DNA from: a virus
Taxonomy: Duplodnaviria > Heunggongvirae > Uroviricota > Caudoviricetes
DNA: 30,668 nt
IMG/VR virus record: IMGVR_UViG_3300045988_129107
Strand: one strand, 5' to 3'
This document shows, one piece after another, positions 24,001-30,000 of the stretch (position 1 is its first letter; each line of letters begins with the position of its first letter). Position numbers: made by a program.

Positions 24001-27000
24001 CTTTTTCAACTTTCGATTTCCATCCAATAACCTGGCGTGGATTCAGCATCGTAACGTACGGGCGACCACCGGCCGCGTTTTCATCGGCTTTTGTCCGAAT
24101 CTCTTTCATATCCGTTCGTGGATAGTCCACCAGCGCATGTGCCACACCATACTGAAATGCGAGACTGAAAAATTGCTGCGCCCACACATCCTGTCGGCTC
24201 TGCAAATATGCGCCCAATATTTTGTTTGATGCTTTCTTCATACACAGGAAGTAGCGTAGCCACAGACAGGCGTTTTTTATAAGCGTCTTCATCTTCATTA
24301 GGCCATTTGGGGAGATAATTTTCCCCCTGCCTGCGCATTTCAAGCGTACCGCCCATCAATGCGTCGTTAATATCCCACGCCTCCAGCATATCGTTATAGT
24401 CGAGGTTGGGTGTTGATATATCAGCCATAATTAAATCCGAAGTGATGTGACTCTTCCGGTCGGTTTGACAATAGGGAATTGCTTAACGATGAAATAACCT
24501 CCGGCATCATTCGGGTGATCATTGCCAGATTTTTTATCAGGCTCCCCCTTATCATCCCAGACCTGTTGCTCCAGAGATTCGGCATATACCGGACAACGCT
24601 TCACATTAACTTTATAGCGACGCTCACCATTGGCATTGCAGAACATTGCATTCATTGAGTTAACGCGATCTTTTACTGGCGGGTTCGAGCTGTTCACCAC
24701 AACGTTAAAACCAGCCTGCTTAAGCTGGGCTATATCCGTCGTACTTGCGTTACTTGATTTTCTGGAATCTCCGGAAGCATCTGGATAAATATAAATCTCC
24801 CTCACTTTCCGGTAATCATTCCCGTCATACAGCCAGAAGCGTTCTTTAATGATGCGGATCATATCCGGCGTATCGTAGGCATTGATGATTTCAGTTACCG
24901 CACATGGAAGCCCCAAACGCAGCACATGGACGATCCCCGCCATCTTTCCAACGTTAAAATCCATCCCAATATAAATCGGCTCCCCTGGCTGCTCCACTTC
25001 TTCGCAATTATTCAGTTTCCGGTCAAACTGATGGTAAACAGTACCACTTGTCAGGTTAGTAAACTGTCCTCGAAGATAGGCTTTAATCAGCTCTGGAGGG
25101 TATGATTCAAGAAGCGAAGGAATGTAATCTGCTGGCAGGTTCTTTTCATTATCGAAAGTAGATGCCTGCACCAGACCATACAGTGAGGCCAGCTCTGTTT
25201 TTTCACGCACGGCTTTAACAAACTGCTCGTAGACAAATTTGAATCCTTCCGGCGTGGTTGTAACGTCAATACCGTTGCGAAGTCCATCAATCTTATAACG
25301 CATACGCGCAATTATCTTGCGCCACGCCGTTCTGGCTTTTTCCTTCGGCAAAATGTCCAGTTCATCCACCAGCGCATTACCAATTTTGAAACCGACGATC
25401 GTTTGTGGCTTCTCCATCGATCTGCAGATAGTGGTTCCCCGATACTGGCGTCCGTAATAAAAGTGAACCTCTTTATTTCCCTCATTAATTTTTACGTTCA
25501 ATCCCCAGTCAGCAGCAACTTCTTCCACTGTAGGGTAAAAAATATCGCGAATTTGGGGATACGTTGGCGCAAAATATCCCTGATTTATACCTGGATGCTC
25601 CCAAATCCCCTTGCATATGCCGCCACACCCAACCCATGTTTTGCCCGAGCCAAAACCAGCAATATAGGCTTTAAATTTATGGGGCATTGAAAGAAATCGC
25701 GCCTGAGGCACATTAAGCGTCGGAGAGATCATCTTCATCACTCCTTACTCTGGCATCAACCACATTAATATTGATCGCCACAGGCTGGGGATGTTCATTA
25801 TCTTCCACCGTTTCGATCTCTTTGCGCAGCTTCTGGTTTTCCATTCTGCGTCGTTCAATTTCCAGTTCCTGTAGCCGCTTATCTGCACATAAAGCCCCGC
25901 CAGCAGAAAGCAAACGCAACAATTCACGCCGGGCGGCAGCCTTATCCTCCAGCAGGATCTCAACGCCGAATTTTCCGAGTTTTGCCCCTGCATATAATTG
26001 CCGCGCATCCCCATCAAGCAGAGTGGTATCAGCCATATAAAGCTGTCCCGTTCCCTCACCGCAGCACTTCGGGCAGTCCGGATTGGGTATGGCGTTATCA
26101 ACAAAGCCGAGGCCTCCATATTCCGGTTCGGGTTTGCCATCTCTGGAAGCCTGCGCCGCTGCCTTGTCGAATTCTGCTATATCGCGCCACTGGTAGAGAT
26201 GATTCTCGCCCCAGCAATAACGGCAGTTAACACGGCGAAATTGTGCAAGCTGATTGGGGTCGGCCAGGACAATGGCCATCAACTGACTCACCAGTAAATC
26301 CAGGTCTGCGGTATAGCGTTTCTGGTACTGATTGCGGAAGTAGCTGATAGCGCGAAAAACCCTGGCATTTCTAAGCATACGACTGGCGTTGCTGTTAGCT
26401 GTCGCACCTTGCCCCTCATAACCGGCTAGTCGGTACGCCTCTGTCGGCTTTTTCCCCTGAGCAACAAGCATCGCAAACTTAGCCTGCTGGTCAGAAATGC
26501 CGAATTCATCGGGACAGAACGAAAATTCCTCCGCGTCGCCCTCATTCAGGCCCGCATCGAATACTGGCTTTTTTTCCTGAGATTTTTCGTTCCGCTTTTG
26601 TGCAGTCTGCGCAGATTTTTTCTGCGCACTTTTTTGCGCAGTTTTGCGCATTTCTGTCTGCGCATTTTTCGGAGGTTTTTTGATGTAACGACGGGCTGTT
26701 GCGTAATTCAGTCCCCTTGCTTCACACCATGCCACCGGAGATATACCGGAGCGGGTGTATTCAGCAATATACTCCTGCTGCAACGCCCCCCAGTCCGGTC
26801 TGCTCATCAGTTAGTCCTGATTTTTATCCACCCTGAGTAGTTCGCGCAGAGCAAAGGCATCCCCTTTTCTGGCAAGCTTAAACAATGCCGCTCGTAACTC
26901 GGCTTCACCTTTCGCTCTGCCCTTACGGATGGCCGCATAAAAATCTGTCATTGCTTCCCGATTTTCTTTCAGTCGGTTCAGATCAACATCCAGAACGTCA

Positions 27001-30000
27001 GCGATTTGTTGTGCAGTCATCCGGCACGCTGCCAGAGACTCGACTTTCGAATACGGAATCATTTGTCACCCCTATTGATATGCAGGGTGTCTTCTTCCTG
27101 TATTTTTCGTGAAGGATTTTTACTGCAGCGTTGTTCCAGGTGACCTGATGGTGAATGCGTTTATGGCTGGCACCCATCAGTGAGATTTTTACGCACGACG
27201 GCGCATACATGACGGAGTAAAAACTTTTAACGTAGGTTCCGGAATCCAGATACAGCTCGGTCATTCCGCCGCTGTTTTTCTGCGTCTGTTTCTGCCCTAA
27301 CTGGACAGCACCGATCGTCATAAACAATTCACCACAGCGACCGAGATTCGTGTACGTATTCACATCCTCGTTAATGCGCCCCATGAATGAGAACGGTCGA
27401 TCAACCGAACAGATAAAGCTGTTCATTGCCTTGCGTTTCACCCACGAAGCATGGCCGCCATTGTCACCAAGAAAATCCCCGCCCTGCGACATAGCGATGG
27501 AAAGAGCAGGTATTGATTCGTAGTACGCCAGCATTTCAGAAAGGATCGCATCCAGTTTCCTTATCGGAAAATAGGCCTGGTCATAGTTGCGATCCACCCG
27601 AAACTGGAACTCGTGATAATCATCATCGAGCTGAATGAAGTATTTACACCCGACCAGTTTTGCCAGGTCGAAACAGGCATTACGGGCGTAAAAAATTGAG
27701 CGGCGGTCACCGAAATTATCGGCTTCGTCAAAACGACTGGCGATATCGGCTTTGGAAAACACCAGCACCTGTTCACCAAATTCAGCCATGTACTGATGCC
27801 GTGTCTTATCTTCATCATCAACAACGATAAAAATTTTCCCGGTATAGCCAGCACGACGCAACGTCCGGTAAGTCAGAACTTTGTCCGGTCGCCCGTGAGT
27901 CAGAATAAAGGCGCAAAAATCATCACGCATATTCCTCCTCCTCACCACCATGCATGATCTCCACCATGCGCTGCGTCATCCGGACAAATCCATTTTCAAT
28001 AGCCTGCTGATAATCAATGATCACCAGCGCCGACTCCTCGAAAAAACACTGAATTTCAGCGGGGGCGTGAGCGTAATAGTCCGCAATTCTGCTGAAATTA
28101 AACACCGTGTGGCGTTCTGCCGCGCACAGGAGGAATTTTTCGATATCGGGCTCAAGGGACGCCGAACGTATCCGGCTGATCAGCTCCTGAGTTTTCGTAT
28201 CGTCGTACAGCTCACTGATGTCCGGTTTATCGCCCGACGGCTCATAAACAGGCGTATCAATTTTCGTCGTGTACGGCTCCTCCTCATTTCCTGTACCTGG
28301 CAAAACATCCGTCAACAGTTCATCAATTTCTGTCGGGCTGAATCCTGTCAGGGAGATATCAAAATCAGCATTGATTAGCTCCGACAGCTCCATCCGCAAC
28401 AGTTCTTCATCCCAGCCAGCGTTCAGCGGCAGGCGATTATCTGCCAGGCGGTACGCCTTTTTCTGATCATCCATCAAACCAGACAGAACGATGACCGGAA
28501 TGGAATCCATTTTGAGCACTTCAGCCGCCATAACGCGACCGTGACCAGCAATAATTTCGCCCTTTTCATCAATCAGCACCGGATTAGTCCAGCCGAATTG
28601 CTTAATGCTTTCTACCAGTTGTGCCACCTGCTCAGGGCTGTGTGTCCTGGCGTTGTGTGCATACGGAGACAGTTCTTGTAAAGGGCGATAGACGATCTTC
28701 AATTTCTCGCTCATACAGCCTTGCTTTATGAATAAAACGCACCCCAGCAGCCAGTGCTACTGGGGGCGGAGGTGTTGCTGGTAAAGTTAGGTATTGGATC
28801 AATGAGTGAGTCAATATAATATTAAACTCACAATTATAAATCAGCCATATATTAGGAGCGCCAAAAAAAACCTGAAAACAATATAATAACAGGATAAATT
28901 TCAAGGCGACCAAGAATCATAGCTATGCACATTAAATATTTTGCAATGTCATTAAGCACTCCGAATGACGATGCAGTAGCCCCAAAACCTAATCCCATAT
29001 TATTAATACATGCAGCCACTGTTGCAAATGATGTAAGAAAATCATATCCCATACCATTTAACACCAGTATAAAAAACACCGTGAAGAGAGTATAAAGAAA
29101 AAAGAAACTCCATACAGACCTCATTACACGATCTGTAACTATCTTCCCTCCTACATTTACACTCAACAACGCTCTGGGATGAGAAAGCTGGTTTATCTCG
29201 TGTTTGCTTTGTTTGAAAAGTATAAGAAATCGAAGTGACTTAATTCCACCACAAGTTGAACCTATACATCCCCCAAAGAAACTTGACAACAGCAAAAACA
29301 CTATCGTGTGCGTGGGCCAGTTTGCATAATCCTGCGTAGCTAAACCATTATCAGTGAGCATGGAGCTGGCAAGAAAAAACGAATGAATAAAACTTCCAGG
29401 CAAGTCATACATACCTATATGCCAGACCTGGAAAGAGGTAACAATGATCACCCCTAAGGCTATTAACAGAAAGAAACGAAGTTCAATATCTCTGATTAAA
29501 GGTTTTAACGTTTTCCTGCTAATAACAATATACCAAAGGGTGAAGTTGAAAGCCGATAGCAGGGAAAAAGAACCAGCCACCAGCTCAACCAAATAGTTAT
29601 TAAAATATCCGATACTCTCGCTATGAGTTGAGAAACCACCAAGCGAAACTGTGGATATCCCGTGACAAATAGCATCAAACAAAGGCATTCCTGCAAGTCT
29701 ATAACAGACAATACAAGCAATACCTAATAAAGAATAAGTTATCCAAAGTGTCCGTGACGTATCGGCCAGGCGGGGAGTAAGTTTGTCATCCTTAAATGGC
29801 CCTGGCATTTCTGACTGATAAAGCTTTGCACCACCAATACCCAATAATGGCAATACAGCAACCGCCAGAACAATAACTCCTAAGCCACCTATAAAATTTA
29901 ACTGTGACCGATAGTACAAATATGCCCGAGGTAATGAACTAACATCATCAATTACAGTTGCTCCTGTTGTTGTTATTCCAGAAACCCCTTCAAATAGAGC

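Follow-up and report, generated by a model that had tools for sequence, protein, structure and literature searches.

A gene pair for a ParB-like protein and a TAGT-family glycosyltransferase, overlapping and conserved next to phage terminase genes: a possible two-subunit DNA glycosylation module

We analysed a stretch of 30,668 nucleotides from a virus of the Caudoviricetes (IMG/VR record IMGVR_UViG_3300045988_129107), referred to here as the window. It carries a pair of overlapping genes, encoding a ParB-like protein (the partner) and a glycosyltransferase (GT), just upstream of the genes for the small and large terminase subunits (TerS and TerL). All genes of this locus lie on the minus strand, in the order partner, glycosyltransferase, a small TerS-like open reading frame (ORF), TerS and TerL:

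27923-28714, minus strand: ParB-like partner gene, 263 aa; C-terminus ...GGEEEEYA, stop codon TGA at 27923-27925
27923-27941, minus strand: coupling junction with GGAGGAGGA, the GT ATG and the partner TGA; RefSeq coordinates agree
26998-27930, minus strand: TAGT glycosyltransferase gene, 310 aa; RefSeq annotation agrees
26811-27020 (69 aa, RefSeq) or to 27062 (83 aa), minus strand: small ORF with a small-terminase-like segment (PHROG 309, 8.3e-23)
25713-26807, minus strand: TerS, terminase small subunit, 364 aa (Pfam Terminase_2, PHROG 51)
24431-25741, minus strand: TerL, terminase large subunit, 436 aa (Pfam Terminase_6N/6C)

The stop of the partner gene and the start of the GT gene share exactly 8 nt (ATGCGTGA, 27923-27930). 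The GT ATG is at 27928-27930, and GGAGGAGGA (27933-27941) sits 2 nt 5' of it. Read from the sequence, this overlap behind GGAGGAGGA is just what an initial description of the locus, here called the first-pass annotation, had claimed. Its length for the transferase, 317 aa, was in error: that figure corresponds to the longest ORF, which begins with an ATG at 27951. The 310-aa start was preferred because RefSeq annotates 310 aa and because homologues start at the equivalent of MRDDF. At its other end, the GT gene overlaps the small ORF (26811-27062) by 23-65 nt. A typical relative of the transferase has 285-290 aa, and the Rac enzyme carries a C-terminal extension of ~25 aa (26998-27075 in the window) that is not found in relatives; the overlap with the small TerS-like ORF follows from this tail. 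The small ORF matched no Pfam family. Neighbour clusters 3 and 13 of related loci match the same PHROG 309 region, and similar small ORFs lie 3' of many related GT genes.

The transferase belongs to the Pfam family TAGT (PF20691, TET-associated glycosyltransferase). It matched the family profile at 6e-35 with 121.5 bits, against a cutoff of 27.5, over profile positions 4-205 of 205, and it matched PHROG 842 at 8.6e-104. PF20691 is also the precomputed Pfam assignment of all listed transferase homologues, and some RefSeq records label the protein 'GREB1-related protein'. The earlier description of the enzyme as 'GT2-like' understated its membership in a specific, already named family. An exhaustive search of 50%-identity representatives returned 1329 relatives, and a word-indexed search at least 8000.

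The AlphaFold2 model of the transferase (mean pLDDT 75, core >90) has a GT-A fold. Foldseek comparison of this model with the PDB returned GnT-I, the collagen galactosyltransferase ColGalT1, SpsA and glycogenin, each at a probability of 1.0, whereas a sequence search against solved structures gave no match. Among viral models (BFVD), Foldseek found phage TAGT proteins (E 1e-25) and, more distant at rank 23, the T-even beta-glucosyl-HMC-alpha-glucosyltransferase. The GT-A fold that the first-pass annotation had expected is thus borne out by model and Foldseek alike, and the metal-site motif DDD (D102-D103-D104) is intact. The motif set R...DDD...ED, known from the phage enzymes and the base-J glucosyltransferase, is represented by R14, D102-D103-D104 and N187-E188-D189. 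Residues conserved in at least 95% of 161 non-redundant relatives are R14, D102-D103-D104, N187/D189, K167, K235, R258 and H260-H261. No membrane segment was seen in the transferase, Pfam gave neither a Gtr nor a GT2 match, and none of the known defence-system models in PADLOC matched it. We also considered a Gtr O-antigen glucosylation system and rejected it: there are no GtrA/GtrC-type neighbours and no Gtr Pfam match, and the gene lies in a late operon between trkG and the terminase. With neither a membrane anchor nor a Gtr-type partner, nothing points to work on surface polysaccharide, in line with the first-pass annotation.

The partner protein consists of three parts:

28310-28714, minus strand: residues 1-135, ParB/Srx (CTPase-fold) N-domain plus helical segment; AlphaFold2 pLDDT ~90
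28217-28309, minus strand: residues 136-166, acidic linker, predicted disordered; AlphaFold2 pLDDT 33-35
27926-28216, minus strand: residues 167-263, helical C-terminal domain, specific to TAGT partners and highly conserved

The N-domain matched Pfam ParB_N with 28 bits, barely over the cutoff of 26.3. A PDB profile search with it returned Noc, ParB and Spo0J at 1e-13 to 1e-9, and Foldseek returned Noc, CTP-bound ParB, PadC, KorB, sulfiredoxin and a free serine kinase. These searches agree on the ParB/Srx fold predicted for the 263-aa protein. The predicted 'DNA-binding/nuclease fold' gained no such support, the partner being strongly acidic and having no recognisable DNA-binding domain. The partner as a whole matched PHROG 620 (1.5e-88), residues 3-141 matched PHROG 498, 'DNA methyltransferase' (2.8e-50), and residues 10-144 matched the PADLOC model for type II methyltransferases (5.7e-37). 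By these profiles the N-domain is a module of the type that is fused to phage DNA methyltransferases, a far better match than the ParBs of partition systems. The nucleotide pocket is partly conserved, at N21/R23, G57..R60 and D92-N93, but the GERR box reads GHGR. A partition ParB of a ParABS system was rejected as the identity of the partner. The partition-ParB model TIGR00180 (NCBIfam) gave 36 bits, below its cutoff of 58.45, no ParA gene was found in the annotated Rac prophage, and in place of a helix-turn-helix domain the protein has the linker and an unrelated helical domain.

Column counts over 114 partner sequences gave the linker motif Y148-[T/S]149-x-K151-x3-P155-x-Y157-x6-P164, in which Y157 is invariant among 70 diverse sequences. 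The profile of the C-domain produced only spurious coiled-coil-like or sub-threshold matches in PDB and Pfam. The partner has a pI of 4.5, and the median pI is 4.7 for partners and 9.0 for transferases. Many related loci encode a stand-alone partner of ~130 aa that consists of the linker motif and C-domain only, without the ParB domain. Such proteins have no Pfam family and are abundant in metagenomes. They occur in 191-kb Vibrio phages and at 11 of the 65 cellular loci of the survey described below, and they make up all of the best 120 matches of one profile search. In every context examined (L306-L311, L314, L315; L006 7459-7878) the stand-alone gene lies directly 5' of a TAGT gene; in one of them, L308, it lies between two TAGT genes. 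Because stand-alone proteins of linker and C-domain adjoin TAGT genes, the linker motif and C-domain are the transferase-specific part of the partner, and the ParB domain is frequent but dispensable.

The pairing itself was examined in two samples. The viral sample comprised ~300 IMG/VR loci, which gave 164 transferase clusters at 90% identity, and pairing was counted where at least 900 nt were present upstream. The cellular sample was independent and consisted of one-genome-per-species assemblies. A partner gene was present upstream on the same strand at 147 of 147 viral loci, directly adjacent at 138 of these, and upstream at 65 of 65 cellular loci; as loci were retrieved by motifs of partner-linked enzymes, the pairing of 100% describes this subfamily and not all of PF20691. 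Conversely, all 28 phage records that contained the partner C-domain had a transferase gene beside it. Pairing is obligatory in this subfamily. The cellular carriers belong to Firmicutes, Bacteroidota, Proteobacteria, Planctomycetota, Verrucomicrobia, Chlorobi, Actinobacteria and candidate phyla and include one archaeon. Among viruses, phages from no fewer than five bacterial phyla have the pair, as does one that infects haloarchaea. A neighbourhood survey had been suggested for lambdoid prophages; the co-occurrence turned out to be conserved well beyond them.

The same gene order is present in Lactobacillus gasseri phage phi jlb1, L. delbrueckii phage c5, Nocardia phage NTR1, a Porphyromonas phage and the haloarchaeal virus HHTV-2, whose proteins are 25-48% identical to those of Rac and whose two genes overlap in each case. 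In phage c5, the pair makes up the first two genes after cos. The overlap of partner stop and GT start measures 4-29 nt in all annotated relatives examined but one, L315, which has a gap of 94 nt. Both genes are under purifying selection (dN/dS 0.07-0.13). Pairwise distances of the transferases correlated with those of their partners (r 0.57) but hardly with those of the adjacent TerL (r 0.13).

The association with packaging genes is also widespread. Of 117 loci with enough downstream sequence, 77 had a TerL start at most 3 kb downstream on the same strand, with a median gap of ~580 nt that often holds a small TerS-like ORF. The TerLs linked to the module span the Pfam groups Terminase_6N/6C, GpA and TerL_ATPase/nuclease. 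At other loci the module lies amid replication genes (DNA polymerase A, sliding clamp, helicases). It occurs in virulent as well as temperate phages; its presence in virulent phages means that it serves the phage lytic cycle rather than lysogenic conversion.

Some neighbours and fusions bear on the chemistry. At a subset of loci, genes for UDP-galactopyranose mutase, an NAD-dependent epimerase/dehydratase and a cytidylyltransferase-like protein are found directly beside the module (L108 8884-10011; L274 6105-7082; L308 9253-9666), which hints at unusual donors such as galactofuranose. Several TAGT proteins (P0248, P0251, P0285, P0286, P0267, P0268) are fused to a class I SAM methyltransferase, to Sulfotransfer_2 or to a second TAGT domain, and these fusions suggest products that may be methylated, sulfated or di-glycosylated. 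Taken together, the fusions and the sugar-nucleotide neighbours indicate real nucleotide-sugar chemistry with glycan tailoring, as in DNA hypermodification clusters. No fusion of ParB and transferase was found among the homologues, the long ones being the methyltransferase, sulfotransferase and second-TAGT fusions.

We propose that the pair of overlapping genes specifies a late-expressed, two-subunit module that glycosylates nucleic acid, namely DNA, and we regard this reading as evenly poised between right and wrong. The catalytic subunit would be the basic TAGT enzyme of GT-A fold, using a nucleotide sugar through the DDD metal site. Translational coupling would supply the acidic partner in fixed proportion to the enzyme, and the C-domain and the Tyr-containing linker motif of the partner probably dock onto the transferase. 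The ParB/CTPase-fold N-domain, which resembles the module that stimulates phage thymine dioxygenases on double-stranded DNA, is by analogy probably what lets the enzyme reach duplex DNA of the phage. Transcription of the pair together with the terminase genes would lead to sugar modification of replicated phage DNA just before or during packaging, and the sugar would plausibly protect the DNA against host nucleases after injection. We infer a physical complex, DNA as its target, late timing and a protective role.

Several lines of evidence support this proposal. Characterised TAGT relatives act on DNA: there are phage GT-A enzymes that act on 5-hydroxymethylcytosine (5hmC), and the base-J glucosyltransferase is a structural neighbour. 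In addition, the opposite charges of the two proteins (pI 9.0 for transferases, 4.7 for partners) and their correlated distances (r 0.57) support a joint function. Further support comes from the pairing at all sampled loci, the recurrent gene overlap, the methyltransferase-type N-domain, the activation of thymine dioxygenases by phage ParB homologues of like layout, the closeness to TerL, the sugar-nucleotide neighbours and tailoring fusions, and the occurrence in virulent phages. The DNA-directed activity suggested in the first-pass annotation therefore gains from the TAGT homology, the ParB-fold partner and the conserved context, but its chemistry is unproven and it faces an acceptor problem.

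This problem is the most serious of several points that weigh against glycosylation of DNA. All support for it is non-biochemical. The bases of canonical DNA have no free hydroxyl. Known viral DNA glycosylation places the sugar onto a pre-made hydroxyl (PMC13326640), and a TET/JBP-type dioxygenase or a thymidylate-synthase homologue is given as the source of that hydroxyl (PMC13326640, PMC8256090). Neither type of enzyme was found in the annotation of the Rac prophage, in phage c5, whose complete genome of 31.8 kb was scanned down to its unannotated ORFs, in ten Pfam-annotated contexts or among the recurrent neighbour clusters of the 164 loci; no TET/JBP profile was run over every locus, and divergent hydroxylases could escape such a search. 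With no visible route to a hydroxyl-bearing base in the prophage, DNA glycosylation therefore keeps its conditional standing. The partner, moreover, is acidic throughout and shows no recognisable DNA-binding domain in model or sequence. Many partners lack the ParB N-domain altogether, so ParB-based DNA targeting is not essential to the enzyme. A DNA methyltransferase was near the module at just 16 of the 164 loci; enrichment of such genes was considered as evidence and discarded, as this count is not informative. Finally, GREB1, a member of the TAGT family, reportedly glycosylates a protein (PMC7968844). We stop at an even estimate because the acceptor is unexplained, the partner has no DNA-binding features and many partners have no ParB domain.

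One way around the acceptor problem is that the pair is a self-sufficient system that would add sugar to DNA directly, at an exocyclic amine, a ring atom or the backbone, with no need for a hydroxymethyl or hydroxy base. We put this forward tentatively and consider it rather unlikely. If true, it would be an undescribed DNA modification chemistry, which roughly every sixth complete E. coli genome would carry, as would phages of most bacterial phyla and haloarchaeal viruses, and the undescribed C-domain of the partner would be key to substrate access.

The acceptor problem would vanish if the transferase sugared a protein, either its own partner at Y157 or T149, in the manner of glycogenin, or a packaging or virion protein of the same operon. 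In favour of this, an invariant Tyr and a near-invariant Thr/Ser stand in a disordered and otherwise variable linker, Foldseek placed glycogenin and protein O-glycosyltransferases near the enzyme in fold, the distant TAGT relative GREB1 is reported to O-GlcNAcylate protein (PMC7968844), and a protein target would suit the adjacency to structural and packaging genes. However, conserved residues in disordered linkers are docking motifs more often than substrates, no glycoprotein is known in any of these phages, and neither the methyltransferase-type N-domain of the partner nor the basic charge of the transferases would be explained. We consider a protein target unlikely. Alternatively, the enzyme could be a conventional GT for 5-hydroxymethyl- or 5-hydroxy-pyrimidines, with the hydroxylase provided in trans by an unrecognised or distant gene, or with the base residing on the hmC-containing DNA of a superinfecting phage. 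The family name and the hydroxylated-base acceptors used by all DNA-acting relatives agree with this, as does a C5-cytosine methyltransferase gene directly upstream of the module in two contexts with stand-alone partners; furthermore, the Pfam TET/JBP model misses thousands of 5mYOX-like contigs (PMC13229309). Yet Rac, phage c5 and the ten annotated contexts contain no candidate hydroxylase, the pair is conserved as a self-contained unit across very small genomes, and expression from the phage's own late operon speaks against a role on foreign DNA. This makes a conventional GT distinctly unlikely.

Two further explanations have still less in their favour. RNA offers abundant hydroxyls, and the target could be a queuosine-type tRNA base, a ribose or a nucleotide-like metabolite, with the ParB-fold domain serving as an NTP-binding or kinase-like subunit comparable to sulfiredoxin or the free serine kinase. 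The ParB/Srx fold does include phosphotransferases (the sulfiredoxin and serine kinase matches of Foldseek), and a QueH homologue is present in the same Rac prophage. However, QueH lies outside the conserved neighbourhood, no RNA-related gene recurs beside the module, and the N-domain is nearest to ParBs that are fused to DNA methyltransferases or bind CTP, not to kinases; we therefore view an RNA or small-molecule target as a long shot. The genes could also be unrelated cargo, the ParB-like protein acting as a nuclease or packaging accessory of the terminase and the transferase being a surface-polysaccharide moron that became its neighbour by chance. Prophage transferases that alter the O-antigen are well known, the Pfam family was formerly named 'ParB-like nuclease', and a ParB-domain nuclease was among the PDB matches, if weakly. 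Against this stand the pairing at 212 of 212 loci across the two samples, partners without a ParB domain included, the conserved gene overlap, a transferase with neither membrane segment nor GtrA/GtrC-type neighbours, and the presence of the module in virulent phages and an archaeal virus. The unrelated-cargo explanation is strongly disfavoured, to the point of being scarcely credible.

Over the region 26811-28851, the window shows 100% identity with the Rac prophages of E. coli APEC O1, K56-43-un and strain 042. This region was matched in 1610 of 5426 complete E. coli genomes, 867 of them with at least 80% coverage. In K-12, trkG is followed by ynaK, an N-terminal stub of the ParB-like gene (87 aa), and then by ydaY. 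The first-pass annotation had taken ynaK and ydaY as the remnants of the pair. This is right for the gene order and for ynaK but not for ydaY, which in the intact prophage is a tail-region gene flanked by the tail tube and tape measure genes. Because ydaY belongs to the tail region, the K-12 deletion has removed the genes for the transferase, the terminase and the head. In many E. coli assemblies both genes are truncated or chimeric, joined to pieces of tail, Lom or terminase genes; this shows repeated deletion of the Rac late region, with various breakpoints, K-12 being one case. A literature search on ynaK and ydaY found nothing functional.

Two observations on the intact prophage may be added. 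The TerS gene of APEC O1 (L001 18903-19997) is flagged by RefSeq as a pseudogene with an internal stop, and the corresponding ORF of the window (25713-26807) is uninterrupted with 364 aa; this points either to a sister strain as the source of the window or to another reading behind the RefSeq flag. A homologue of QueH (epoxyqueuosine reductase; L001 29319-29984) is annotated in the nin region of this Rac prophage, an unusual cargo gene for a phage, which lies outside the conserved neighbourhood of the module.

Upstream of the pair, the window contains the following features:

28852-30327: trkG, a low-GC insert with 35-40% GC, compared with 48-52% for the pair
28742-28765, minus strand: strong terminator-like hairpin with a 10-bp stem (7 G-C pairs), followed by a T-run

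The hairpin falls between the trkG stop and the start of the ParB-like gene, at the boundary of the trkG insert and the phage late genes. The insert separates the lysis genes from the packaging genes. Only a weak promoter-like site was seen upstream of the pair (28813-28840); for the pair to be transcribed late, either antitermination or a promoter of its own is presumably required. Five palindromic TGCGCA(G) cores, spaced 10-15 nt apart, fall within the 5' portion of TerS at 26607-26664, and this 58-bp stretch holds half of the TGCGCAG matches of the window. The cluster could be a candidate pac site or TerS-binding array, or it could be mere repetitive coding sequence rich in K, A and Q.

We searched the literature for a ParB-TAGT pair without a hydroxylase and for the partner C-domain and found none, nor did we find anything relevant on modified DNA in HHTV-2 or other carriers. 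The earlier statement that the pair has no characterised function agrees with this, as the search found no characterising paper. The broader idea of a ParB homologue that partners DNA-modifying enzymes near packaging genes is, on the other hand, not new. According to Burke et al. 2021 (PMC8256090), Iyer et al. 2013 (Aravind group) proposed that ParB directs DNA-modification machinery to DNA at packaging. O'Toole et al. 2026 (PMC13229309) showed that phage ParB homologues serve as activators of the cognate thymine dioxygenases; in a pair studied in vitro, the enzyme depended on ParB solely when the DNA was double-stranded, and mutations of putative NTP-binding residues had little effect. Pyle et al. 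(bioRxiv 10.1101/2023.12.21.572611) showed that phage GT-A enzymes glycosylate 5hmC and saw ParB-like and terminase neighbours, and they put to one side the ~65% of transferase contigs that lack a 5mYOX or ThyS neighbour, as having a less obvious tie to DNA modification.

As judged by sequence, the novelty lies in the partner domain: dedicated to the TAGT enzyme and not described before, it takes the place of the hydroxylase to which the family owes its name. A large part of the phage transferase class that had been set aside is a tightly conserved two-gene module, located at the packaging end of the genome and equipped with a dedicated partner protein. Should this module act on DNA, it would represent a new route to sugar-modified DNA and would matter for how phages resist restriction and CRISPR, for artefacts in sequencing and for the enzymatic labelling of DNA. 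Should it act on protein, it would be a new phage glycoprotein system. E. coli K-12, which has lost the transferase by deletion, is a natural null in which the module can be tested directly.

Compared with known systems, the Rac enzyme shares the profile, the GT-A fold and the R...DDD...ED motifs of the TAGT family, which includes the base-J glucosyltransferase, the phage GT-A enzymes acting on 5hmC, and GREB1. It differs in two respects: the TET/JBP association that gave the family its name was not found in the contexts searched here, and the Rac-type subfamily has an obligatory partner. The T-even DNA glucosyltransferases transfer sugar from a UDP-sugar onto phage DNA after replication and so protect it from host nucleases. 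The T2/T6-type beta-glucosyl-HMC-alpha-glucosyltransferase is a distant fold neighbour of the Rac enzyme and the source of the PHROG 842 label; the alpha- and beta-glucosyltransferases of T-even phages, in contrast, have a GT-B fold. All of these T-even enzymes need hydroxymethylcytosine made by way of a phage dCMP hydroxymethylase, and none of them has a ParB-type partner.

On the partner side, partition ParB, Noc and KorB have the same N-domain fold, and their nucleotide-pocket positions are partly kept in the Rac protein. The Rac partner differs from partition ParB by its acidity, by GHGR in place of GERR and by the lack of a ParA gene and of a helix-turn-helix domain; no parS site came up either, though none was looked for. 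A close parallel in gene arrangement is that of 5mYOX and ParB (PMC13229309), in which the gene of a phage DNA-modification enzyme likewise adjoins a ParB homologue. By their published description, these ParBs also consist of an N-domain, an unstructured linker and a C-domain without a DNA-binding domain, and their clusters are often found close to terminase genes, with glycosyltransferases as frequent members. Unlike them, the Rac pair has a glycosyltransferase as its enzyme and no dioxygenase was found with it, and the C-domain of the Rac partner is tied to TAGT genes and also occurs without a ParB domain. Finally, fusions of a phage ParB domain with a DNA methyltransferase were noted in PMC12704722, and Kaljevic et al. 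2025 catalogued prophage fusions of this kind. Such fusions (PHROG 498, PADLOC MTase_II) carry the same N-terminal module of ~140 residues on the DNA-modification machinery of temperate phages. In them, however, the module is covalently joined to the catalytic domain, whereas the Rac partner has it joined to an adaptor domain and leaves catalysis to a separate, translationally coupled protein of another chemistry.

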